From assembly GCA_964614915.1 (NCBI GenBank), contig CAZTNC010000019.1, forward strand, positions 2,091-66,090: 64,000 nucleotides of DNA. The letters are read 5' to 3'. The DNA is from an uncultured Thiotrichales bacterium (GTDB taxonomy: Bacteria; Pseudomonadota; Gammaproteobacteria; UBA4575). Each line of letters begins with the position of its first letter. Within the stretch, counting starts at the first letter, position 1. The notes beneath the pieces were generated by a model. That model was given only the letters and a program-made list of their open reading frames with translations. It was not told where the DNA came from and made no database searches. Made by a program: the position numbers and the translations under genes. Shown here in pieces: positions 1 to 12,202 of this stretch.

Positions 1-286
1 AAGGCGTTACCCCTGCCATGCAAGCCGGATTGAGTGATTTACTTCTCTCCTGCATTCGCTTGGTGATGCTTAAGTTACAGGCCAGTAGGAAGAGGCGTGG
101 TTCACCATCTTGCCTGCTACAGGTGACTAACGAATCCAGATATCCCTTGCCGTATTCCTGCAGATAGGGCTGTTGAAATTTGGCCTACTTGGCAAGCACC
201 GCGACATTACCACATTCAATTCGACACTACCAAACTTGATTGTCCAGCAAGGGATACAATGGCCCTGTTTTATGCATAAGCTGAAA

Positions 287-970
287 CTACGCATTCAATA
301 GATCAATAATTTCCGAACATGACAAACGTCTACCACCTGTAAAGGTTCTCTTCATGGGCTCATAAATTTGCCACATCCTTCTGTAGTCCCCTATGGAGGG
401 ATCGTGAGAATTAAGGTCATGCTTTTTAAACTCTTGGAACCGATCCAGATGATTGATCAAAAACCAGGCGACACTGTGATGTTCGGGTTCTTCGTTTCCG
501 TCGAATCCAGGAAATTTCACAGGCTGTCCACTTGGCCCAGCCTTTATCCCGACTTCTTTTTTATCTTTATCTGAAAGTTTGGAGTAACTAAATTCAATCC
601 TGGACCACATCTCCAACACATCACAAACTTCTCTGACTACATGTTCCTGGTCCACATGGCTGTGAAACAAGCCAGAGTACTCCCATTCGAATCCCCAATA
701 GTGCCCTCCCCCAAGTGCCTCGCTGACGAAATCTGGGTCTATCTCCCCCTCAACTTTGTGGTGTTTGTAGAGATCTCGAAGCATCATCAGGACCAGCTTT
801 TCGCCGTCAGTGATACGAACGTCATCACGACCAAAGGCAGTCAATCCGGCATCTACAAGCCTTCGTACAGCTTCTGCGCGCGAAGGTTGATTCGGCTGTT
901 CAAATCGCCATGCATCTATCCGTTGCAAGGTATGCACATCCAGTCGCATCTCAAATCGCTCTGCTTTCAT
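287..970 (-). CDS. Ribbon-helix-helix (CopG/Arc-like) domain fused to a YfbU-family domain
   Basis: N-terminus 'RFEMRL...LQRIDAWR...SRAEAVRRLVDAGL' is RHH-like. C-terminal 'VCDVLEMWSRIE...FPGFDGNEE...DLNSH' motifs are typical of YfbU proteins. Confidence 0.8.
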   Translation of the reverse strand: MKAERFEMRLDVHTLQRIDAWRFEQPNQPSRAEAVRRLVDAGLTAFGRDDVRITDGEKLVLMMLRDLYKHHKVEGEIDPDFVSEALGGGHYWGFEWEYSGLFHSHVDQEHVVREVCDVLEMWSRIEFSYSKLSDKDKKEVGIKAGPSGQPVKFPGFDGNEEPEHHSVAWFLINHLDRFQEFKKHDLNSHDPSIGDYRRMWQIYEPMKRTFTGGRRLSCSEIIDLLNA

Positions 971-1018
971 CTTGGCCTCGCCCCTAAATTATTACGGTGT
1001 ATAGACGGAAAACCGTTA

Positions 1019-1034
1019 TATAATACGTATTATA
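1019..1034. promoter_or_regulatory. Perfect 16-bp palindrome TATAATACGTATTATA (TATAAT on both strands); probable promoter/operator of the RHH-YfbU gene
   Basis: Read directly from the sequence; lies about 50-65 bp upstream of the ATG at 970. Confidence 0.55.
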
Positions 1035-1193
1035 CGGCATATATACGTACTTTCAAGGAAAGACGGATAACAGAAAGCATCGCCATTTGTGAAATATCTT
1101 TGTCGGGGGGGATCTACTCTCAGACTGGCCTGCTAGGAATGTAACTTTGCCAGATCACATAACCTAGATTGAAAACCCTGAAACGAAGTTGGC

Positions 1194-1804
1194 CTACTCC
1201 CTTTTTGATGCGTTCTCCAAAAGTGACTTCATTCTGAAGAGAGCAAACCCTTTTTGTGCTAGAGAGGCTTTTGAACGGGGATAAGCATCCGCATAGGTCA
1301 CTGCAGCATGAACAAGCCCTTCCGTCGGCATCGGGTGTGCAGCCAGGATAGCCGGGACACTGTCGCCATTGGCCATCATCTCGCAATATCATGGACAGCC
1401 ACCCGGGTGCCTCTAAGACAAGGCGTGCCATTGAGAACATCCCCGTCAACTGTAACCATCCTCTTCGCTTTCTCCAGTGCTGTCAGTCTGCGCCGTACAT
1501 TGCTTTTCATCGGGCGGACATCGATTGAAACAGCATCTTCACGGACTGCCCTGGTTTCGGGATCATCGAACAGACGGCGGATAAAGCCCATCCTTCCCTT
1601 GAGGGTCAACATATCCGTCGTTTCATGTGCGAACTTCAGACTCACAAGTGCCTTGCCCAGAATGACCCGGCTGCCCTTTTCGCGCCTTACGGCATCCCCC
1701 AGCAGGCCCGCATCGATGATGCGATGCACTTGTTTCAAGGACACACCCGTTACCTTGGCTGCCTCATTTACAGACAGAACACGCTCGTCGAATTTCATGT
1801 TCAT
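1194..1804 (-). pseudogene. HTH + DUF433 antitoxin-like gene, split by a 1-nt frameshift near 1379-1384
   Basis: ORF 1376-1843 ends in the DUF433 motif 'DGDVLNGTPCLRGTRVAVHDIA'. The continuation 'MMANGDSVPAILAAHP...AVTYADAYP' is in the next frame (ORF 1194-1379): CAT GAT ATT GCG AGA TGA versus expected GCG GAG ATG ATG. Confidence 0.75.
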
Positions 1805-2134
1805 AATCTTTCCTTCAACGTGGAAAGATCTATGAGCGATCAAGGCAAAATATCAACTTTGAAAAGTTGCTGTAGCAGCCGCAAAATCGGGCCGTACTTG
1901 CCATGTAATAGCCAAATATTGCCCAGCACACGTTTTCGGCCCCCTTATGAAAGGGTAACTGACTACGTGGCCGGGACAAAAAGGCTATTGGGAAGCGCAA
2001 CATGCTACATTTATGAAATTGAATGGATTGGCTTGACGTCCGCTGGACCAGAGCTTTCAAGTGCTGGCCTTCGCGTTGGTATTTTTAGCGTTACACGATT
2101 TTCAACTGGCATTGGAACCCTCAAGGAACCCGAA

Positions 2135-2222
2135 ATGAAGAAGCCCGGCGTACCGGGCTTCTCAATTTTGTGACTCAGGTCTTGTTAACAGATTGACTTC
2201 AAATCTCAACAACCCTAGGCAC
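2135..2222 (-). ncRNA. Predicted tracrRNA (anti-repeat, nexus, terminal hairpin); ends approximate
   Basis: Minus strand reads TGAGATTTGAAGTCAATCTG (2208-2189), a perfect 20-nt complement of the repeat at 5583-5602. This is followed by TTAAC, a nexus-like AAGAC-CTGA-GTC and a 10-bp hairpin (2139-2162). An extended -10 TG-T-TATGGT lies at 2237-2229. Confidence 0.75.
2139..2162 (-). terminator. 10-bp stem hairpin (AGAAGCCCGG-TACG-CCGGGCTTCT) ending the predicted tracrRNA
   Basis: Perfect inverted repeat 2139-2148 / 2153-2162, followed on the minus strand by a weak TCATTTC tail. Confidence 0.6.
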
Positions 2223-2270
2223 GGATAAACCATAACACAAGAAGTGGTTCAGGCACCAAATGATCAAGCC

Positions 2271-5200
2271 ATGAACTGGCGACTGGGAGTCAGCCTCGGG
2301 ACCCACGCACTGGGGTGGTGGGCATTCCAGGTAAAGAAGACCGGTAAGCGCTGGCAGCCCCGGGCCTCCCTGAGGGGCGGGGTCTATATTTTCCCAAGCG
2401 GGCGCGAGCCTGCACGTCGGGGGCGCGTGGGGGACAGTCATGCGGTGAGGCGACGGCTGACCCGCAACGCACGTCGCAACCGCGACCGCAGGAAGACCCG
2501 GTTGCAAGCCTTCATGCGTGAACTGGTGGATCTGGGGCTGATGCCGGAGTCCATCGAGCAGCGAAGAGGGCTGTTTCAAACGTTGCCGGGATCGGCAGAT
2601 CCCCATCAGTTCAATCCCTATTTTCTGCGCGCCGAAGCCGTACACAGGACGCTGGCGCCCTACGAGCTGGGCCGAGCCCTGTTTCACCTTGGGCTTCGAC
2701 GCGGCTACAAATCGAACCAGATCGGGGAACAGGAGGAGAATGGCGGGGATTTCAAGGAACGGATCGTCAACCTCAAGCACGCGCTGGACGGGCAAACCCT
2801 TGGGCAATTCCAATGGAAGCGGATTAGGCAGGACCTGAAGCGGCAGCAGGTCGGTGAACCCCCTGTAGGGATTCGTTTTCGGGACCCAGGTAGTTTTTTC
2901 CCGGACCGCTCAATGTACGAGGCCGAGTTCGAAGCCATTCGGCAAAGACAGGCCCCCGAGCACGACCTGACGCAGGAAGACTGGGAGCGGCTGAGGGACC
3001 GCTACGTGCTGTTTCAGTGGCCGCTCAGGCCGATGTCTCGGGGGCCCTGCCGGTATTTTTCAAACGAGATAAGGCACTGGAAGGACACGCCGATCGCCCA
3101 TGACTTTCGCATCTACCGGGAACTGAACTTGCTCAAGTGGTTCGACCATGAATACCAAGGGCACGATCTGGATGCCGAGCAATACACTACGGTTCGCAAT
3201 CTGTTGCTGAGCCGCAAGTCGGAAGTCAAATTTGATGCCCTGCGCAAGCTGAAAAAGGCCGACCAATCCCTGCTGTTTCCTGACTGCTCCCACTTCAATC
3301 TGGAATCGGAGGACCGTAGCCGCAGGGGCATCGAGCCGCACGGCATGGTCAACATCCTTGGAAACCATCCCGTGCTGACCCCATTTTGGGCGCAGCGGTC
3401 CACGGACACCGGGGGGGGGGCTTGCTGGATGACATCTTCGCTGCATTGCTGGAGGAAACGGAACAGGAGGCGCTCAACGCCCGCCTGCTGGGAGAGTCCA
3501 ACCTGGAAGAGGAAGCCATCGAGACATTCAGGTCATTGAAGCTTTCCCGGGACACTGTCGGCGAATCACGCAAATTCCTGGAGAAGATCGTTCCCATCCT
3601 GCGCGATCAGCACCTGACGGTTTGGGAAGCCATCCGGGAAGTCAGGGATGACCGGGGCAAGCCCCTGCATCCTGGGCACGGGCCGAACCGCCATGATTAC
3701 GAGGAGCTTCCCTACTATGGGGAGATCCTGCGCGACTCGATGGCCGGCATGAATCCCGAAGCCGATCCTGCAATCGAACCCGAACTTCATTTTGGCAGGA
3801 TCGGTAACCCGACCGTGCATGTGGCACTGAACAACCTACGCCGGGTCGTGAATGCCCTTATCTCAAGATTTGGCACCTTGCCGGTCGAGATCTACATCGA
3901 GCTGTCCCGCGACCTGAAAAACAGCCGAAAGAAACGCAACATCGCATCCACGATCCAAGCCCGCAACAAGAAAGCCGACGACAAATATTGCGAGGAACTC
4001 AGGGAGTACGGGATACACAACCCTTCCGGGCGCGACCTCAAAAAATATAGGCTGTGGAAGGAGTTGGGCGAGGGAGATGCGGCCCGATGCTGTCCGTTTA
4101 CGGGCGAACACATCTCTGTTGCGCAGCTGCTCAGCGGCGAGGCCGAAATCGAGCATATCCTGCCCTTCAAGCGCACCCTCGATGATTCAATGGCGAACCT
4201 TACCGTAGCCATGTGCCGGGCAAATCGGATCAAGGGCAACCGGACACCCTTCGAGGCGTTTGCCGAAGGTGTCCATTCGAAAGACGGCATCCACTGGGAA
4301 ACCATCACCGAACGGGTGGCAAACCTGCCCCACCACAAGAAGTGGCGATTTGGCAAGAATGCCATGCAGATCTTCGAGCGCGAGTATGACTTCATTGCGC
4401 GCCAGTTGACGGACGATGCCTATATTGCACGAAGTGCAGCCCGCTACCTCGGATGCCTGAAAGGCGTTGAGCAAGTCGTTTCGAGCCGGGGCAGTCTGAC
4501 AGCACTTGTGCGTGGCAAATGGCACCTGAACGAGATTCTTTGCGAAGACAGCCGGAAAAGCCGCGACGATCACCGCCGCCATGCGATCGATGCGGCGGTC
4601 ACAGCCCTGGTGGACCAATCCCTTCTGAAAAGCGTTTCAAAACGAACCGCACGCGGGACCGACGGCAGGATTCACATCATGGTGCCCAAGCTGGATGACC
4701 GTATGAAAACTTCGATTCACCAGCAGGTGCACGAGATGGTCGTGGCGTTCAAGCCGGACCATGGACTGCAGGGCCAGATGTTCAATGAAACGGCGTACGG
4801 GCACATTGAACCTGACCGACGCGATCCGGACTTTCCGCAGCACACCCTTGTGACCCGCAAGTCGATCACAGCCCTGACGCCGAAAGAATGTGAATACATC
4901 CGGGACCCCGGCATCAGGAAAGCTGTATCTTCATGCTTGGGCAATGCCAGAAAAGCAGGTGAGGCGCATAAGAAGGCACTGCTTCGCTTTTCCCAAGAAC
5001 AAGGTATCCGCAGGGTTCGCATCCTCATCAAGGACCAGGTCGCCATACAAATCGAATCAGCACCCTACAAGCGGTATACGACCAGTGCGTATGCGTGTTG
5101 CGATATCTGGCGAGTACCCAAGGGCAAGGCCGGCCAGTATGTGCCGGGTGAATTTACTTGGCAGGGTGTTTTCTGGTCGTATGTGGATGTTTCTGGCGAA

Positions 5201-5470
5201 CATTCCAGCCCAGGGGAACGAAAGCCCCATCCCGGGGCCAGGTTCATCTGCCGGCTATACAAGAACGACATGATCGCCTGCAGGAAGAACGGGGAGATGC
5301 ACATCCTGCGGGTGGTCGGCTTCAGCACAACCAACAACAAGCTGAGCATCGCTCGCCATTATGCTGCGGACCCTGAACAGCGGTATGTCAGCATCAATCA
5401 ACTTGGGATCAATCAGCTTCAAAAGCTGCATGTTACCCCTGATGGGACAGTAAAAGGCCTTACAAAGTGA
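2271..5470 (+). pseudogene. cas9: Type II-C Cas9 (about 1065-1066 aa if in frame), frameshifted at G10 (3411-3420), RuvC-I Asp replaced by Ser
   Basis: N-terminal 'MNWRLGVSLGTHALGWW...GVYIFPSGREP', Arg-rich bridge helix, 'GRIGNPTVHVALNNLRRVVNALI', RuvC-II 'IYIELSRDLK', HNH 'EIEHILPF...NLTV...ANRIKGNRTPFEAF' and RuvC-III 'RDDHRRHAIDA'. ORFs 2244-3539 and 3386-5470 join at the G tract. Confidence 0.92.
3411..3420 (+). repeat. G10 homopolymer at the cas9 frameshift (G8 or G11 restores the frame)
   Basis: ...GACACC GGGGGGGGGG CTTGCTGGATGAC...; the downstream frame needs GGC TTG CTG GAT GAC. Confidence 0.9.
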
Positions 5471-5484
5471 CTCGAGGTCTTGTT
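5467..5484 (-). ncRNA. Second copy of the tracrRNA nexus-like motif (AACAAGAC-CTCGA-GTCAC) overlapping the cas9 stop codon
   Basis: Plus-strand GTGACTCGAGGTCTTGTT versus GTGACTC-AGGTCTTGTT at 2170-2186; the single indel lies in the predicted loop. Confidence 0.4.
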
Positions 5485-5546
5485 GGAATCGCCTGTGAGG
5501 GTCGGCGTCCCTGCGTGGATCGGGGATTTAACGAGGTGCTGGATAG

Positions 5547-5574
5547 CAATAAACTCTTGGCCGTGCCAAAAGAG
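5547..5574 (-). terminator. Hairpin plus T-rich tail directly after the lone repeat (CTCTTTTGGC-ACG-GCCAAGAG-TTTATT)
   Basis: Read on the minus strand; bulged 8-bp stem followed by TTTATT. Confidence 0.5.
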
Positions 5575-5606
5575 CAGGCCACTGAGATTTGAAGTCAATC
5601 TGCAAC
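5571..5606 (-). CRISPR. Single 36-nt type II-C-like repeat GTTGCAGATTGACTTCAAATCTCAGTGGCCTGCTCT; putative spacer at 5607 to about 5636; no array
   Basis: The 20-nt core is complementary to the tracr anti-repeat, and the GTT 5' end pairs with AAC of the tracr. Length and ends resemble type II-C repeats. I saw no second copy. Confidence 0.7.
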
Positions 5607-5634
5607 TTGCAGTATGTCATTACTCGTGGGCTTG

Positions 5635-5640
5635 AGTATA
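5635..5640 (-). promoter_or_regulatory. Candidate -10 box TATACT for the spacer-repeat RNA (start near 5628, about 22-nt guide)
   Basis: Plus-strand AGTATA at 5635-5640, where type II-C repeat-embedded -10 boxes normally sit relative to the next repeat. Confidence 0.45.
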
Positions 5641-5759
5641 CACTCGCAATCTTCATAAAGCCCTAAAATCATGTCCAGACGTGTACTCCAGATAATCAGT
5701 AAATGGCCTGTACTGATGAGAAAAGCGCAGAAATTTAGCTTATTTGGGGTGCAGGACGA

Positions 5760-5955
5760 AATCGATATCTCACGGGCCCCTGCGTTCTGGAGACGAATAT
5801 CAGCAGAACATCCAGATAACATTCACAGCGATTACGAATCTACGCACCCCTCGACTGCCGGGAGATTTGTGCGAATGGAAAACGTGACCAAGGAGATTCG
5901 TACAAAGGAAGAGGCAGGAAACCCACTGCCTCCAAACATGAAATCCGACAAGTAA
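5760..5955 (+). pseudogene. C-terminal remnant of an M48-family metallopeptidase
   Basis: 'DISRAPAFWRRISAEHP...STHPSTAGRFVRMENVTKEI' resembles the M48 C-terminus (FWRRM...STHP...ER). The HEXXH part is absent. Confidence 0.55.
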
Positions 5956-6170
5956 GAGAATTTATACCGCGCCCTCCACAGAGTGGACCGGGATCATTCC
6001 CTTTGTTAGCATTCCCGGCAGTAATGGCCCGAATCTGGACCTTGCCGCTTGGTTAGTGTGATTCCCAATGCGGACCATGATTCGGTCATTGCCTTCTCGG
6101 GGCAGCGTTACGTATCACAGTTGGATATGGCGCACATCGGTTGCCCTCACCTGACACGGAGACATCGGAA

Positions 6171-6260
6171 ATGAAGAGTTTTTTCGAAGCAAACGCAACC
6201 TTGGTTCTTGTGGTAGCTGCGGTCACTTTTGCAATCCTGACTGCTGTACTGGTTCAGTAG
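6171..6260 (+). CDS. 29-aa hydrophobic small protein MKSFFEANATLVLVVAAVTFAILTAVLVQ
   Basis: Translated by hand; GGAG about 9 nt upstream; one predicted transmembrane helix. Confidence 0.35.
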   Translation: MKSFFEANATLVLVVAAVTFAILTAVLVQ

Positions 6261-6558
6261 TACCGCGCCCTGCCATCAAGCCAGTACTTTTACTTGATCT
6301 CCCGTAAGCGCACCGCGATCTCTCGACTTTTGTCCAGCAGACACCATAGGGTGCTCAGCACCATAGCCTTCTGATGGTCATGCTCCAGATGGCAGGGCCA
6401 CCGCAATAGAGGTTGAAGATTTTACTTATAGCGGAACCTCTCCAAAGAACTCATACATCCTGCCATAACTGCTTACTCTAATTCTTACTTTCAATTCTAG
6501 GCTAAGAGGGTTACCCCTTAATTCTGTTGCATAGATTACCCAAAAACTTTGTTTTCCT

Positions 6559-6578
6559 CGGTACACTACCGGTACACT
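6559..6578 (+). repeat. Tandem CGGTACACT x2 with 11-bp periodicity; probable integrase arm-type binding sites
   Basis: Copies at 6559-6567 and 6570-6578, about 120 bp from the tRNA-derived att core. Confidence 0.5.
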
Positions 6579-6696
6579 CCCCAGTTTCGGCTACTCGCAC
6601 TAAACTAACCTAACATGCTGAATTAGCAAGATTCATACTAGCTCTACCGAGCATTACTTGTTTCAATATAATCAATGGCTTATCGATCATTTTGGC

Positions 6697-6742
6697 ACTG
6701 TTAATCACTAGGTCGGCGGTTCGAGCCCGTCCCGGGGAGCCA
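6697..6742 (+). mobile_element. att site: 3' half of tRNA-Asn(GTT) from anticodon loop to CCA; right boundary of an integrated island
   Basis: A-CTGTTAA-TCACT-AGGTC-GGCGG-TTCGAGC-CCGTC-CCGGGGA-G-CCA has a GTT anticodon, T-arm, G73 and CCA. Upstream sequence cannot form the 5' anticodon stem, D-arm or acceptor strand. Confidence 0.8.
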
Positions 6743-6846
6743 ATAAAAACAAAGACTCATGTAAATTCTGAAAAACCATAAAACATCGCATAACTACTAT
6801 TTAACCAAAGAGTCAGGTTGGCTCCCAAATTAGACAGACTATAACG

Positions 6847-8136
6847 ATGAGTACACAATTGATCACAGAGATACGTACGCACCGGGACAACTGTAAAGAG
6901 TCTTTGCGTAGTTTCAAAATAGCTGAACACCCAGGAAAATTCGGGCAAGAGCAAGAGTACACAGCTCAGAAGATTCTCGAAAATATAAATTTAATATTAG
7001 TTGGCGTTACATCGCTCACAAAAAAACCAATTAAATTTATTCAGAATTCAACGTGGAGTGAGCGAAGAGATTTAGCCGGATGGCTAAACGAGTTGAATGC
7101 CCATATCGTTAGTAAAGATTTACCTGCAATCATTAATACTCTTGAGAGCATTAAGCCATTTTTACGGAGCATAGGCATTTATTTTACGAATGAACGAGTC
7201 GAAGCCCATGAAGAATATATTAGAAGATTACTGGTAAATGCTTCCGGCCTTTCCCAACACATCATTAAAGCAGAAGCAATTGAATCAAAGACAAAAGAAA
7301 TAGAGCAGGAAATCAGCGAATCACATCAACAGCTTACAGAGATATATGGAGAACAATTACTACGCATAGAGACATTAGGAGAGACTATAAACTCAACTGA
7401 AAGAGAACGTGAGAAATTAGCTGGTATTGTCGAGCAAGACTCTGCTAGATCCCAAGAAGTAGAGAGAATTTTAACTGAAGCCAAAAGTCATAAAGGAGTT
7501 ATAGATGGCTTTGTCCAGAGAATTTCACAAAGAGAGTCTCAGTTGGAAGATCAAGAGGAAATGACAAGGGAGTACATTGAAAAACTAGAAGCCTTTAAGG
7601 CTGGTCATGAACGCTACAATTCAGAGGCTGATGAGCTAATAAAGCAATCAAAAAGTGCCTTGGAATTATCAACTTCAGTAGGACTCAGCAAAGCATTTTC
7701 TGCACAATACGATAAAGCTAATAAAAGATTTCCTAAATTCTTTTGGATTACTACAGCTGGAATTTTGGGTGGGCTAGCAGTGTATCTAGGTTGGCTGGCA
7801 TTGGACGAAACCAACAGCGTGGCAGCAGTTATGGGCAGGATATCACTACTACCAATATTGATTGCTGGGGCATGGTTCTGTGCTGGGCAATATGTGAAGC
7901 AAAAAAATATTGCAGAAGACTACGCATATAAAGCAGTTCTTGCCAAGTCAATCGTGGGTTTTTCTGACCAACTTTCGACAGAAAGTCAAAAAGGTGATGA
8001 TCACTCAATCTTTATGAGGTTGGCTCTCTACGAAATGATTAAAAATCCTCTTCGGAAACATCCACGGGAAGCTTCTAGTATGTCTGAACTCCTTAACAAA
8101 CTTTCAGGCCTATTTAAAATTAATACTCCCGAATGA
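6847..8136 (+). CDS. Hypothetical membrane protein: long coiled coil and two C-terminal TM helices
   Basis: 429-aa AT-rich ORF with an E/K/Q-rich central region and two hydrophobic segments before 'QYVKQKNIAEDYAYKA'. Confidence 0.75.
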   Translation: MSTQLITEIRTHRDNCKESLRSFKIAEHPGKFGQEQEYTAQKILENINLILVGVTSLTKKPIKFIQNSTWSERRDLAGWLNELNAHIVSKDLPAIINTLESIKPFLRSIGIYFTNERVEAHEEYIRRLLVNASGLSQHIIKAEAIESKTKEIEQEISESHQQLTEIYGEQLLRIETLGETINSTEREREKLAGIVEQDSARSQEVERILTEAKSHKGVIDGFVQRISQRESQLEDQEEMTREYIEKLEAFKAGHERYNSEADELIKQSKSALELSTSVGLSKAFSAQYDKANKRFPKFFWITTAGILGGLAVYLGWLALDETNSVAAVMGRISLLPILIAGAWFCAGQYVKQKNIAEDYAYKAVLAKSIVGFSDQLSTESQKGDDHSIFMRLALYEMIKNPLRKHPREASSMSELLNKLSGLFKINTPE

Positions 8137-8297
8137 ATCGTAGGAATTGCACAGTCATCACGATACCAATCTAGAAGGCTAGTGTTTGATAATGATTGAT
8201 GGCAAGCAAACAGCATAGCTAGTCCAACATTTTCTCTAGCTCTGTCAGGATATTCTCAACATCACGATTCTCACCTGTCTTGCAGGAGTCTTTTATA

Positions 8298-9290
8298 ATG
8301 TACTATCTTCATTTTGAGAATGTGACAACTATCGTGAGAACAGCCCTGTTCTACCCGTTCCGATATTTCATCGCAATATTTGGTTTGTGTGTTCTTGTCC
8401 TGACAGGAGCAGTACATGCAGAAGATGACCAAAGAAGGCACAGCGGCGTATATGTAGGTCTTGAGTTGGGATTTGTGAATGCCGAGGGGCTGTCGTCTGA
8501 CTTGTCGGGAATCAACCACCCTACGCAGTGTGACCAACTGCTCAAGGATGACGATCCGGCAACGGATGACAGGGTGGTAGACCTGTCGAATCCGGCATGT
8601 AATGTTGGTGACATACCCCAAACCTTGTCCGCCAATTCTTTTGATCTGGGCAATGAGCTACTGGGTGGTATCAGCGTGGGCTACGTGCGGGACAGGGTTC
8701 GCATCGAGCTTGAATACTCACACCGGGTTTACGATGGCAGCGATTCCTCGCCCTGGAGAATCCCCGGCTCAAACACCCCTCTTGCAAGCAAAAACAACGA
8801 AGTCAGCGAACTTGATCCACCGTCCGAACGGATATCGAATTTCGACGCCCACCAGCTTTTCGTGAACGCCTACTACGATTTTCCGAACTCCTCACGCTGG
8901 ACTCCCTATCTGGGTGCGGGTTTCGGCTGGGCTCGGACCCGGTTTGACTACATTGCCCGCTTTTTGCGCAAAACACACGCACAGGGATACCCGCCAGACA
9001 AACCACCGGCGGCTGCCGGTACGCTCGGCTACTGGGATACGAGGATCTCCGAGACGCTTTTCGGCTTCCAACTCCTGGGCGGTCTGGACTACGCGCTGAG
9101 TGAAAACCTCTCAATGGGCATCAAGGCACGCTGGGCCGAGTTCGAGGATTTCAGCCACAGCGGCACTTGGGATCTCATCCGCAGTCATGAGCCCGTGCAG
9201 GCCGATGGCGTGACCCCATGGAGGAGCACACTTGAGTTTGACGATGTCGAATACTGGGCCGTGAGCTACGTGGTCAAGTATCGATTCTAG
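8298..9290 (+). CDS. Outer-membrane beta-barrel protein (opacity/porin-like)
   Basis: Signal-peptide-like N-terminus, 'GVYVGLELG', 'FVNAYYDF', 'WTPYLGAGFG', 'GFQLLGGLDY' and C-terminal Phe. Start uncertain. Confidence 0.8.
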   Translation: MYYLHFENVTTIVRTALFYPFRYFIAIFGLCVLVLTGAVHAEDDQRRHSGVYVGLELGFVNAEGLSSDLSGINHPTQCDQLLKDDDPATDDRVVDLSNPACNVGDIPQTLSANSFDLGNELLGGISVGYVRDRVRIELEYSHRVYDGSDSSPWRIPGSNTPLASKNNEVSELDPPSERISNFDAHQLFVNAYYDFPNSSRWTPYLGAGFGWARTRFDYIARFLRKTHAQGYPPDKPPAAAGTLGYWDTRISETLFGFQLLGGLDYALSENLSMGIKARWAEFEDFSHSGTWDLIRSHEPVQADGVTPWRSTLEFDDVEYWAVSYVVKYRF

Positions 9291-9507
9291 TCAAGAAACC
9301 TCAGCTCACGGTGGTGTATCCGTTTGAAAAATTGTTTAGGATTTAGCTAAAAGACTTAGGTCAATTGCCAATTGAATAAGGCATTGCTGTATTGGCTCTT
9401 TTCCCATTTCCCTACTCCACCAGGCCTGTTTGCAGGATAGAGGATAGACCATAGCCTATGGTTTAATAACATGCTCCTGCGCATATAGCAGATTATAGGA
9501 GCTAGTT

Positions 9508-9933
9508 ATGAGCGATTCAAAAGGATGGGTATCTGCCAGAGCAAATTGTACAGTTGAAGTTGCTGCGCGTGCTATTCATGCGGCTATAAAATCAGATATT
9601 GAAGAATTCAACGATCTACCAACTGAAAAAAGAGGATGTCGCACTTTTAAAATTGATGATAGAGATTACACAAACGTAGGTATTGGGTTTAATGTAGACA
9701 ATAGGCATATAGCAGGTGCGCCAAGAACCTATTGGGCACTTACTTTTAAGGTTAATAAAAATAATATAAACGTATTTATTAACGATGCTAAGGAACAAAA
9801 AGAAAGTCTTTTATTTCCTATTGAAATTCAGTGGTGCGAAGAAACATCCCTATGCCAATACCTAGCGGACGAACAACCTGTAACACCAGAAGAAATTTCA
9901 CGAAAAGCATTATATCCGGTATTTTTTAAATAA
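9508..9933 (+). CDS. Hypothetical protein
   Basis: 141-aa AT-rich ORF with GGAG RBS. Confidence 0.6.
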   Translation: MSDSKGWVSARANCTVEVAARAIHAAIKSDIEEFNDLPTEKRGCRTFKIDDRDYTNVGIGFNVDNRHIAGAPRTYWALTFKVNKNNINVFINDAKEQKESLLFPIEIQWCEETSLCQYLADEQPVTPEEISRKALYPVFFK

Positions 9934-9935
9934 AA

Positions 9936-10157
9936 CTATTCATCACTGTTTAATGCTACTAGACAGGCACTAATCATAATTAGTGCCTGTCTAGTATAAT
10001 CAAGCTGTTCTTTAATTTGATTTATCTCGGATTCACAAACTCCAGGCTTACTATAATCTTTTGTAACATCAATACCTGTGTACATTTTTAGCTTTTTAAT
10101 ATCTGCCAATAAAGCATTTATGTTCTCGTCTATGCTTTCTTTTTTAGTTTTTGACAT
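9936..10157 (-). CDS. Hypothetical small helical protein
   Basis: 73-aa AT-rich ORF with GGAG RBS. Confidence 0.45.
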   Translation of the reverse strand: MSKTKKESIDENINALLADIKKLKMYTGIDVTKDYSKPGVCESEINQIKEQLDYTRQALIMISACLVALNSDE

Positions 10158-10194
10158 AAGATTCTCCTAATCGTTAAATATCAATGCGACAATA

Positions 10195-10581
10195 ATGTAT
10201 TCGAAACCTCTAAGTGAATTAACACCTTTTACGTGGCGTATACTTGTTCAAAGAGTGTCTGATGAGCATGTTAATTTCTATAGAAATAACAACATAACTA
10301 TCACGTATGGTGATCTAGCTTACATCCTAGGGATTCATGCCTTAAGCGTAAGCTATAACTTGAATCAAATTCATAGATTCTGTAATCGTAATAATTTACC
10401 TAGGTTAAATATAATTGTCGTACGTAAAGACACTAATAAACCTGGTAAAGGCATGCCTTCTGATGTAGTTGATTTTAACAAGGAGATAAGTCAAGTTAGA
10501 GAGCATGATTGGTACCAATACAAAATACCTACTAGTAACGATTTCTTATCAAATACCAGTCGTGTAGAAATTAAAAAATAA
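10195..10581 (+). CDS. Hypothetical protein with winged-HTH-like 'ITYGDLA...LP.L..IVV.K.T..PG.G' signature
   Basis: Motif recognised in the 128-aa translation; function unknown. Confidence 0.6.
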   Translation: MYSKPLSELTPFTWRILVQRVSDEHVNFYRNNNITITYGDLAYILGIHALSVSYNLNQIHRFCNRNNLPRLNIIVVRKDTNKPGKGMPSDVVDFNKEISQVREHDWYQYKIPTSNDFLSNTSRVEIKK

Positions 10582-10621
10582 TATTAGGTATCACATACCG
10601 TACCAAGACCGCGGCCATCGA

Positions 10622-11779
10622 TCAGTCCAGTCCCGGGACCACGGGAATCACCGTACCCCAGTAATGACAACTCGGACACTGCCAGTAGAGCCTCCTGCAA
10701 TGAAACCCGCACTGCGTGCACTGGTGCGAGTTGTGCTGGCTGACGAAGTTCTCAATGCTCATCTGGATGCGATCGGAAATCTGCTCGCGGAAAGACTCGT
10801 TTTGCAGCGGCACGTTCTTCAGGAACGCGTTCACTTCCAGCAGTGACAGCTCGGGCTTTTCCAGCAGCAGTTCCAGGATTTCATTTTTCCCAACCTCCCC
10901 GTCCGCCAGATCCGTCAGCAGGGAGGACATCACGATTCCGCTCAGTTTCGAGTCCTTGACCTTGAGCAGGAACTGTCGGAACCCTTCGGCATCGTCCTGG
11001 CTCAGGAAGGCTTCGTGCAGCTTTGCAAAAATTTCCGGCAGGTACTCCGGGGTCTGCTTGGCCACGTTTTTGTAATGCCGGGTGGCGGCCTTGTAGTTTT
11101 TCTCGTGCATGGCGTAATTGCCAAGCAGCACGTTGGCCCGCGCACAATGCCTGTCGTACGACAGTGCCTTTTTAGCAAGCTTCCCGGCCGCCTCACCTCC
11201 ATCGCTTTCCTCGTCGAACGCCTGCTCGCTCAGCTCACAGCAATAGTGTGCAATCATCGGACTCATGTCCTCATTGTTGACCTGCTCCAGCGCCTTGGCG
11301 GTCTCAATCGCCTTGCGCCACTCCTTTTCCTGCTCATACAGGCCAAGCAGCAGGGGGTAGGCTTCCAGTTTTTGCAAGCCAATCCGGATCACGTCGGAAA
11401 ACAGGGATTCGGCCCGGTCCAGCAGCCCGGCCTTGAGATAGTCCTTGCCCAGCTCCAGCAGTGCGGTTGAGCGATGGGTGGAAGACAGCGCCGGGCGCTC
11501 GATCAGGTTCTGGTGGATGCGGATGGCCCGGTCCACCTCACCGCGGCGCCGAAACATGTTGCCGATCGCGAGATGGGTCTCGACGGTCTCGGTGTCCACA
11601 TCCACCAACTCAATAAAGACTTCCAGCGCCTTGTCCGGCTGCTCATTCAGCAGGTAATTCAGGCCCTTGAGGTACTCACCCGGGATTTTCGGCTTGGACT
11701 TCTGATGATAGACGATATAGGCCAGGTACCAGCCCGCAAGGCCTGCCAGCAACAGCAGCAGCCAGTAGAGTTCCGGCAT
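10622..11779 (-). CDS. lapB: LPS assembly protein B (TPR repeats and rubredoxin domain)
   Basis: 'YLKGLNYLLNEQPDKA', 'THLAIGNMFRRRGEVDRAIRIHQNL', and C-terminal CxxC...CPSC. Confidence 0.95.
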   Translation of the reverse strand: MPELYWLLLLLAGLAGWYLAYIVYHQKSKPKIPGEYLKGLNYLLNEQPDKALEVFIELVDVDTETVETHLAIGNMFRRRGEVDRAIRIHQNLIERPALSSTHRSTALLELGKDYLKAGLLDRAESLFSDVIRIGLQKLEAYPLLLGLYEQEKEWRKAIETAKALEQVNNEDMSPMIAHYCCELSEQAFDEESDGGEAAGKLAKKALSYDRHCARANVLLGNYAMHEKNYKAATRHYKNVAKQTPEYLPEIFAKLHEAFLSQDDAEGFRQFLLKVKDSKLSGIVMSSLLTDLADGEVGKNEILELLLEKPELSLLEVNAFLKNVPLQNESFREQISDRIQMSIENFVSQHNSHQCTQCGFHCRRLYWQCPSCHYWGTVIPVVPGLD

Positions 11780-11905
11780 CAGTCAGGCCTCTTGTTCAGT
11801 AATGGATGAAGGTATGCGATTCATGTCGGCCCAAGTCATGCCTGAGACAACCCATCCTGCACGGCTTTTCTGGGATCAGGAATGAAGCGCTTTTCTGCCG
11901 CGGCG

Positions 11906-12202
11906 TTATTTGTCGGTCTGCGACCGGTTCACGCGTTCTCGCAGTTCCTTGCCTGGCTTGAAGTGGGGCACATGCTTGCCCGGCAGTGAGACGGCCTCCC
12001 CAGTCTTGGGGTTGCGCCCGATGCGGGGCGGTCGAAAATGCAATGAGAAACTTCCGAAACCGCGCACCTCGATGCGCTCGCCTCTGGCAAGCGAAGTGCT
12101 CATCTGTTCCAGGAGGCTTTTGATCGAGAGCTCGATATCCTTGTAGGCAAGATGATTTTGCTGTGAAGCAATATTTTCGATCAGCTCCGATTTCGTGATC
12201 AT
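11906..12202 (-). CDS. ihfB: Integration host factor beta subunit
   Basis: 'MITKSELIE...[29 protein letters not shown]...[14 protein letters not shown]'; follows rpsA. Confidence 0.96.

Follow-up and report, generated by a model that had tools for sequence, protein, structure and literature searches.

Introduction

Small CRISPR-associated RNAs (scaRNAs) such as that of Francisella novicida have been predicted or studied in other type II loci as well, including the type II-C locus of Neisseria meningitidis (PMC10120712, PMC13431127). In Streptococcus pyogenes, a long form of the trans-activating CRISPR RNA (tracrRNA), tracr-L, targets the cas9 promoter. It is a fixed guide with an 11 bp seed by which Cas9 is repurposed, and regulatory mini-arrays are reported in about 6% of type II loci (PMC10120712). 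Phages encode the type II-C2 variant, in whose Cas9 the RuvC domain is inactivated and HNH is apparently still active, and a role as an anti-CRISPR has been suggested for it (PMC12669027). Here, we describe a solitary type II-C CRISPR RNA (crRNA) unit in a 64,000-nucleotide (nt) stretch of DNA from an uncultured Thiotrichales bacterium (contig CAZTNC010000019.1; hereafter the window, to which all positions refer unless a related locus is named), together with the cas9 gene and the tracrRNA beside it. The original prediction, made from the letters of the window, had taken this unit for a stand-alone crRNA gene with its own promoter and terminator. Comparison with related loci points instead to the last trailer-end spacer-repeat unit of a type II-C array, and the reading that we favour, with some reserve, is that this unit was probably in use as the sole guide of a Cas9 with a dead RuvC domain. 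Our literature search found no published description of these sponge-symbiont loci.

Results

The crRNA unit and the tracrRNA

Read from the minus strand (5640-5548), the unit runs in the order TATACT, a 28-nt spacer, a 36-nt repeat, an 8-bp hairpin and TTTATT. The original prediction had placed TATACT at 5640-5635, the repeat at 5606-5571 and a hairpin with TTTATT behind it, and sequence reading, folding and a terminator scan located every one of these elements there. The spacer, an old trailer-end spacer that we call spacer A (5607-5634, minus strand, 28 nt), has CACGAGTAATGACATACTGCAA as its last 22 nt, and the mature guide is likely to be its 3' 20-24 nt. The single type II-C repeat, R1 (5571-5606, minus strand; 36 nt, GTTGCAGATTGACTTCAAATCTCAGTGGCCTGCTCT), matches the repeat of a related 15-repeat array (locus L004) at 31 of 36 positions, which bears out its full 36-nt extent. 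No second copy of R1 was present in the window with up to three mismatches allowed, nor were tandem repeats or another array detected within these 64 kb. Instead of the two or more repeats with spacers that make up a CRISPR array, the locus holds one repeat and a decayed partial repeat upstream of it.

The decayed upstream repeat, R0 (5635-5655, minus strand; TGAAGATTGCGAGTGTATACT), keeps the -10-like TATACT. Promoters borne by the repeats have reportedly been described for type II-C systems. The repeats of the family to which R1 belongs end in TAnnnT (TATTCT, TACTCT, TATCCT, TAGCCT or TAACCT), with the exception of terminal repeats that have no spacer to drive, and R1 itself, which ends in GGCCTGCTCT, has lost this -10-like box. 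TATACT lies within 2 nt of the TAnnnT position of the family repeat and 28 nt ahead of R1, and the box stands about 28-30 nt from the next repeat in the family; a -10-like box at the distance expected of repeat-borne type II-C promoters, as had been claimed, is present. It is plausible from the sequence that TATACT is a -10 box inherited from the decayed upstream repeat. The promoter and terminator scan scored no full -35/-10 promoter for the crRNA unit.

Behind the repeat, folding and the terminator scan both picked out a terminator-like hairpin (5572-5554, minus strand) followed by the U-tract TTTATT (5553-5548, minus strand), in a scan that overall was not enriched over shuffled sequence (7 sites vs 5.3 expected). 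The hairpin is composed of the last bases of R1 and of a stub of cas1, and a sister strain of the window genome differs at 5549 and 5551, which turns UUUAUU into UUCACU. The terminator of the original prediction thus exists as a hairpin with TTTATT, is built from a repeat end and a gene remnant, has a U-tract that the sister strain does not keep, and is probably fortuitous. Rfam returned no family match for the crRNA or the tracrRNA, and its sole CRISPR-DR match was sub-threshold and lay inside cas9. One further feature of the unit was noted: spacer A ends in CTGCAA, which is complementary in reverse to TTGCAG at repeat positions 2-7, and the two together make up a 13-bp palindrome over the spacer-repeat junction (5607-5619, minus strand), which recurs with one mismatch in locus L002 and is likely a coincidence.

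The RNA encoded on the minus strand upstream of cas9 (2132-2222, approximate ends) is, by its predicted structure, a tracrRNA with an anti-repeat, a nexus and a terminator. The anti-repeat core lies at 2208-2189, and wobble pairs extend it to about 2217-2185; the nexus is the small hairpin GAC-CUGA-GUC, and the terminator hairpin (2162-2139) is followed by UUCAUUU and was also called as a terminator-like site by the scan. The RNA folds at -32.7 kcal/mol (z = -3.5). An extended -10 box (TGTTATGGT, 2229-2237, minus strand), for which a promoter role can be inferred, precedes it; a TGnTATGAT/TATTAT box stands at the same distance from the anti-repeat in loci L001, L002, L004, L005 and L012, and the sister strain has TATGAT through a change at 2230. 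Furthermore, the tracrRNA sequence, with its extended -10 box and terminator, is near-identical upstream of cas9 in eight related loci. A stretch at the end of cas9 and the start of the cas1 stub (5467-5486, minus strand; AACAAGACCTCGAGTCAC) resembles tracrRNA positions 2168-2185 (minus strand; AACAAGACCTGAGTCAC); the stretch is coding, and the likeness is probably due to chance.

The repeat and the anti-repeat match perfectly over 20 nt (2189-2208, plus strand, and 5583-5602, minus strand), as the original prediction had stated, and two copies of such a match arose in 0 of 100 shuffles. A chance match was considered and ruled out by these shuffles and by the uniqueness of the repeat. When the crRNA and the tracrRNA were folded together, repeat positions 1-31 paired with the anti-repeat, the tracrRNA strand bulging by one base; the energy was -65.8 kcal/mol compared with -43.9 ± 3.0 kcal/mol for shuffled crRNA. 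In addition, repeat position 6 forms an A:U pair in the window lineage and a G:C pair in the relatives, both strands having changed, and covariation of repeat and anti-repeat is also found in the more distant L014 family. The claimed pair of crRNA and tracrRNA at cas9, both on the minus strand and joined by anti-repeat pairing, is thereby borne out, and R1 is a solitary repeat-like element next to cas9 that pairs with the tracrRNA, as a scaRNA does. The orientation of the tracrRNA fixes the direction in which the repeat is read, and the guide is therefore 5634-5607.

Related loci and the origin of the unit

The window sequence was found in sponge metagenomes. For comparison we took the loci of all relatives with at least 70% Cas9 identity and some at about 60%; a contig scan with one protein gave one locus, and the other loci came from exact-protein look-ups. 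These loci share a family repeat, GTTGCGGATTGACTTCAAATCTCAGTGATCTATTCT, also written GTTGC(A/G)GATTGACTTC, which is read towards cas9. They form a series of reduction: L004 has cas1, cas2, a leader and about 15 repeats, and cas1 and cas2 are absent from L012 (7 repeats), L005 (4 repeats and 1 more displaced by an insertion of IS1595 and a restriction-modification system), L002 (3 repeats), L001 (2 repeats) and the window (1 repeat).

What is left of cas1 in the window is a stub of about the first 31 codons (5474-5565, plus strand; 92 nt), 77% identical to the first 93 nt of L004 cas1 (7987-8079; E = 6e-13) and aligned by tblastn as GLVGIACEGRRPCVDRGF vs GLVEIADEGRHLCVYRGF; the deletion junction follows at about 5566-5570. 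No further cas1 or cas2 was detected in the window by tblastn with L004 Cas1 and Cas2, so the locus lacks the adaptation gene pair. A longer cas1 pseudogene at 5476-5994, suggested by one tblastn alignment, was rejected, since nothing of it was left without the N-terminal anchor (E = 14-51). As read from the junction, a single deletion can be seen to have begun in cas1 at about codon 31, to have taken the rest of that gene together with cas2, the leader and every younger unit, and to have joined the cas1 stub almost directly to R1.

The junctions elsewhere differ. The start of cas1 is fused to the end of cas2 in L005 and L002 and to a repeat in L012 and the window, at different points in these two, and a middle piece of cas1 is left in L001. 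Because the junctions differ among lineages, there were at least three to four independent losses of cas1 and cas2, each of which spared cas9 and the tracrRNA. In L005 (5443-9314), an insertion with IS1595 transposase genes and a HindIII-like restriction-modification pair interrupts the array, whose old end now lies 3.6 kb off, at 8994-9092.

The complete array of L004 shows which end survived in the window. Its leader adjoins cas2, and its degenerate repeats are at the far end, the 5' end in the crRNA sense, so that the far end is the old one. From this old end, the partial repeat R0 comes first and is followed by spacer A; next come a variant repeat with CTTATCCT at its end, then spacer B and the younger units. 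The window spacer (...CGAGTAATGACATACTGCAA) is homologous to the sequence at the spacer A position of L002 (...CGAGGACATACTGCAA), with an identical 3' 12 nt and an indel just upstream of this 12/12-nt match. Another homologue is the displaced unit of L005 (...GAGCAGACTGCAA), which has recognisable repeats on both sides and largely shares the 3' 12 nt; in L004 and L012, spacer A is more diverged and does not keep them. Three relatives have spacer A in common with the window, and in two of these its 3' end is almost identical. R0 can be aligned to a partial repeat that precedes spacer A in L002, L004, L005 and L012, and this alignment is weak for the window.

On this comparison the window unit is best described as a real old trailer-end spacer-repeat unit left by a deletion, not a newly built gene. 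The view of a stand-alone gene has to be given up accordingly. The refutation that the original prediction had foreseen, a leftover of a deleted array whose spacer is leader or random sequence, holds in its first half and fails in its second, the spacer being a true old one. As for the conservation of the spacer that it had proposed to look for in homologous loci, the 3' 12 nt recur in L002 and largely in L005, and not in L004 or L012.

Spacer B (...TTTGATAAGTGTAATGA) is absent from the window and is kept in L001 (13620-13648), L002 (9444-9472), L004 (10136-10166) and L012 (8588-8616), where its repeat-proximal 15-20 nt are identical although the cas9 genes of these four lineages differ by about 0.64-0.9 synonymous substitutions per site (dS). 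Between species (cas9 dS 0.64-1.1), conservation is confined to the 12 nt of spacer A and the 15-20 nt of spacer B nearest the repeat. The adjoining non-coding flank is 76% identical over aligned columns, in an alignment with many gaps and some blocks that are just as well conserved. This retention of the 3' end is suggestive, not decisive, and recombination among co-resident symbionts could also be its source.

The reading frame and catalytic residues of Cas9

The type II-C cas9 gene (2271-5470, plus strand) would encode 1066 amino acids if read through and is split into open reading frames (ORFs) at 2271-3539 and 3386-5470. Pfam recognised HNH_4 and RuvC_III in the product, the closest homologues (70-92% identity, from Gammaproteobacteria genome bins) are named Cas9 or Csn1, and the best matches among solved structures are type II-C Cas9 proteins. 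The frameshift lies at a G10 tract (3411-3420, plus strand), where one extra base restores the frame; the sister strain has GGGGATGGGGG at the tract (Thr-Gly-Asp-Gly-Gly) and is in frame. The G10 tract is also present in an independent Logan assembly of run X1, and its support comes from X1 alone, at a depth of about 6. It could represent a recent inactivation, a slippage-prone tract that switches the gene on and off, or a homopolymer miscall.

The catalytic Asp of RuvC-I is replaced by Ser at residue 8 (2292-2294), the N-terminus reading GVSLGT vs the motif GxDxGT. In a table of catalytic residues from 115 relatives, Asp occupies this column in 107 of the 109 relatives aligned there, and a solved type II-C Cas9 (9ar4) has its catalytic Asp8 at the position of Ser8. 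RuvC-II and -III keep their Glu, His and Asp, and HNH keeps its His and Asn. Neither the frameshift nor the loss of the RuvC-I Asp had been noticed in the original prediction. Loss of RuvC activity is known for D10A-type mutants of Cas9, and by analogy we infer that the Asp-to-Ser change abolishes it here. The window Cas9 is thus predicted from its residues to do no more than nick the guide-paired strand through HNH, or to bind only.

Counted with the variable Asn of the GNR motif left aside, core catalytic residues deviate in only five proteins of the 115-relative table. These are the window Cas9 (Asp8Ser), that of the sister strain (P0001; Asp8Ser and Asp774Asn in RuvC-III), P0004 of L002 (HNH Asn-to-Ser at the SpCas9 N863 position), P0006 of L001 (RuvC-II Glu-to-Ala, HNH His-to-Tyr, HNH Asn-to-Ser and RuvC-III His-to-Gln) and P0009 of L013 (RuvC-III Asp-to-Asn). 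The first four all come from loci without cas1 and cas2; the L013 contig ends 1.1 kb past cas9, and in that stretch neither a cas1 call nor a repeat was obtained. P0006 (L001 10001-13198) is a full-length Cas9 in an intact frame, with an intact tracrRNA and a two-repeat mini-array at a locus without cas1 and cas2, and its residues make it a candidate for a natural dead Cas9. The L001 sequence was confirmed at a depth of about 150. The ratio of nonsynonymous (dN) to synonymous substitution was about 0.28 on the L001 branch vs about 0.18 for its neighbours, in a rough, distance-based estimate. A search for a sister strain that could date the inactivation of the L001 Cas9 turned up only identical copies.

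The sister strain and selection on cas9

The sister strain (runs X3-X5, protein P0001) has about 95% nucleotide identity to the window and is collinear with it for tracrRNA, cas9, cas1 stub, repeat, spacer and TATACT alike. The one-guide layout is common to both, and the deletion is therefore older than their split. The sister cas9 frame is intact, without a premature stop. Over 868 codons, the two cas9 genes differ with dN = 0.035 and dS = 0.105 (ratio 0.33), that is, by 68.5 nonsynonymous vs 60.5 synonymous changes where neutrality would give about 3:1 (P = 4e-9). When the changes were polarised with five outgroups, 23 nonsynonymous and 25 synonymous changes fell on the window branch and 27 and 26, respectively, on the sister branch. 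These results demonstrate that purifying selection acted on cas9, to about the same degree in both branches, after the one-guide, Ser8 state had arisen. Because cas9 stayed constrained in both lineages, the frameshift in the window is either very recent or an error. The claim that there is exactly one guide at the locus held as well, and this state is shared with the sister strain, in which cas9 is under purifying selection.

Identity of the crRNA and tracrRNA with the sister strain was tried as proof of constraint on the RNAs and rejected: the local divergence is about 2%, and equal identical runs (88-114 nt) occur in cas9.

Searches for a target

The guide was searched against the window and against viral, phage, plasmid and metagenome collections. 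No protospacer for spacer A was found in the window with up to three mismatches or with 12-14-nt seeds, in agreement with the original prediction, which had seen none by eye. An exact 19-mer of spacer A returned no protospacer in IMG/VR, and the INPHARED phages and PLSDB plasmids gave only chance matches of 17-20 nt (E. coli phages and similar records); the phage and plasmid search that the original prediction had proposed brought nothing beyond chance. In the metagenomes of the Joint Genome Institute (JGI), an exact 18-mer of spacer A had 27 matches, none of which reached towards the 5' part of the spacer. They include one recurrent family without long ORFs, probably eukaryotic DNA, in which the match runs 4 nt into the repeat in 2 of 6 contigs. 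An 18-mer of spacer B gave four chance matches and nothing else in IMG/VR, from which the repeat is absent. Within the window and eight related loci, a search for targets of the old spacers in their own locus returned only one 9-nt match, attributable to chance.

Other features of the window

The GC content is 42-58% at 1-12000 and about 60% elsewhere in the window. A sequence like the 3' end of a transfer RNA (tRNA), with T-arm, acceptor stem and CCA, stands alone at 6711-6742 (plus strand), and ARAGORN found no whole tRNA in the window; it is probably the attachment-site remnant of an integrated element. Between two small ORFs, a 30-nt inverted repeat with 83% complementarity and a 4-nt loop (9945-10008) matched only weak, meaningless microRNA models in Rfam.

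Discussion

We consider it somewhat favoured by the evidence that the unit is the last trailer-end spacer-repeat unit of a type II-C array and was probably in use as the sole guide of a RuvC-dead Cas9. Since the same Ser8 layout is found in the sister strain and cas9 has been under purifying selection in both branches, the one-guide set was probably in use and not dead weight. Most likely, as the sequences suggest, the trailer-end remnant served as the only guide of Cas9 until very recently or still does so in the sister strain. The window set would then have been either inactivated only a short time ago or switched off, unless the homopolymer was misread. In this arrangement, TATACT from the decayed repeat would drive transcription starting a few bases into the spacer, the crRNA would pair with the tracrRNA through the first 31 nt of the repeat, the duplex would serve either as it is or after trimming by RNase III, and Cas9 would be loaded with one fixed guide of about 22 nt.

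Several observations weigh against this proposal. The cas9 gene is frameshifted in the window genome, and the effect of the Asp-to-Ser change is taken from D10A-type mutants. The homology of R0, the source proposed for TATACT, is weak, and the identical spacer, repeat and TATACT of the sister strain are not informative. Spacer A was retained in the window and spacer B in L001, which fits random survival of trailer ends equally well as selection, and the window, IMG/VR, the phage and plasmid collections and the JGI metagenomes contained no protospacer for spacer A. No RNA run containing the window sequence was found, and an RNA run with the same species label as the host of L001 held nothing from the L001 locus. 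Finally, guides from an array elsewhere in the genome could explain the constraint on cas9.

This last point leads to an account that is possible and clearly less probable, namely that the repeat, the spacer and the -10-like box are neutral leftovers that make no useful RNA, with cas9 itself being lost and its apparent constraint due to another role or to guides elsewhere. The loci do form a decay series in which nuclease residues are lost only where cas1 and cas2 are missing (the window, P0001, P0004, P0006 and probably P0009), and the frameshift and the missing catalytic Asp, the empty target searches, the survival of different old spacers in different lineages and an accidental, unconserved terminator are all what an inert relic would leave. 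However, such a relic is difficult to reconcile with a dN/dS of 0.33 that both branches show from the time when one repeat and Ser8 were in place, and with a 3.2-kb frame that remains intact in the sister strain and also in L001, whose Cas9 is doubly nuclease-dead. An intact promoter, anti-repeat and terminator of the tracrRNA and the compensatory A:U pair also count against it.

If the guide is in use, it may act as a regulator, with about 12 nt of PAM-proximal (protospacer adjacent motif) pairing to a chromosomal promoter or 5' untranslated region and repression without cutting, much as the Francisella scaRNA or the Streptococcus tracr-L does; this comes close to the original prediction. We regard this as unlikely, though the pattern of spacer conservation is what it predicts: only the 3', PAM-proximal parts of the old spacers are conserved between species (12/12 nt for A and 15-20 nt for B), next to a flank at 76% over its gapped alignment, and loss of nuclease residues would make self-targeting harmless. 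Against it, no seed match of at least 9 nt lies near cas9, the tracrRNA or their neighbours in any locus, bar the one chance 9-nt match; neither L004 nor L012 keeps spacer A, the window has no spacer B, and the flank has conserved blocks too.

A still less probable use of the guide is defence, by nicking or binding, against a single phage or plasmid that persists in the sponge community. The normal crRNA architecture, the full-length spacer and the purifying selection on cas9 would suit single-target immunity, but the viral, phage, plasmid and metagenome collections contained no protospacer, a fast-evolving mobile element is unlikely to still be matched by a spacer of such age that species with 70%-identical Cas9 have it in common, and interference by a nickase is weak. 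That the unit is a solitary-repeat decoy (an RNA anti-CRISPR) or a mini-array of a mobile element, as the low-GC stretch next to the tRNA 3' fragment might suggest, is disfavoured and very improbable, given that the repeat is absent from IMG/VR and that the unit has its own cas9 and tracrRNA next to it and occupies the place of the chromosomal arrays of its relatives.

Returning to the sole-guide proposal, its extension to the whole clade is doubtful: the lineages may have been converted from adaptive immunity to fixed-guide devices, in which a natural nickase or dead Cas9 would serve as an RNA-guided regulator in the manner of CRISPR interference. The basis for this suggestion is the repeated loss of cas1 and cas2, the 1-7 repeats left, the shared ancient spacers with their PAM-proximal 12-20 nt conserved, and the erosion of nuclease sites (RuvC here, both domains in L001) in 3.2-kb frames that are under purifying selection. 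If functional, the window set would be an adaptive immune locus stripped down to a hard-wired RNA-guided protein that has one inherited guide, takes up no new spacers and makes no double-strand breaks. Relatives of Cas12 and TnpB are known to have taken such a hard-wired route; to our knowledge, it is barely documented for Cas9. The related loci form a natural series leading from a full system through a nickase-like Cas9 to a fully nuclease-dead one with one or two guides. If the loci are only decaying, they offer a clean, dated case of type II-C breakdown in host-associated bacteria, in which the adaptation genes went first, then the array from its leader side and then the catalytic residues.

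The locus has the HNH/RuvC cas9 and the tracrRNA with an anti-repeat by which type II-C is recognised. Like the canonical systems of N. meningitidis and Campylobacter jejuni, it combines a Cas9 of about 1070 amino acids with HNH and RuvC, a tracrRNA upstream of and divergent from cas9, and a 36-nt repeat that starts with GTTG and is read towards cas9, in a family with TAnnnT at the repeat 3' ends. Unlike them, it has no leader, a stub in place of cas1 and cas2, one repeat, Ser8 and a frameshifted cas9. With the Francisella scaRNA it shares a single repeat-like RNA by cas9 that pairs with the tracrRNA and carries one fixed guide (PMC10120712, PMC13431127); the scaRNA, however, occurs together with a complete array and a Cas9 that is active, and its target, with partial complementarity, is known, whereas the window unit is an array remnant. 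A fixed guide that repurposes Cas9 would also be the likeness to tracr-L, from which the window differs in having no seed match to the cas9 and tracrRNA region. Mini-arrays and CreA/CreR likewise have a degenerate repeat, a spacer-like segment and a repeat beside cas genes (PMC10120712), but they are usually extra to a working array and match a promoter of the same locus; for the window unit, which comes from the trailer end of an array, the search of its locus gave no match of this kind. The solitary repeats of RNA anti-CRISPRs are carried by viruses or plasmids, away from cas genes, and not beside their own cas9. As in type II-C2, comparison of residues suggests a natural Cas9 in which RuvC would be dead and HNH is intact, but the window Cas9 is chromosomal, of the ordinary type II-C kind and altered by a single Asp-to-Ser point mutation.

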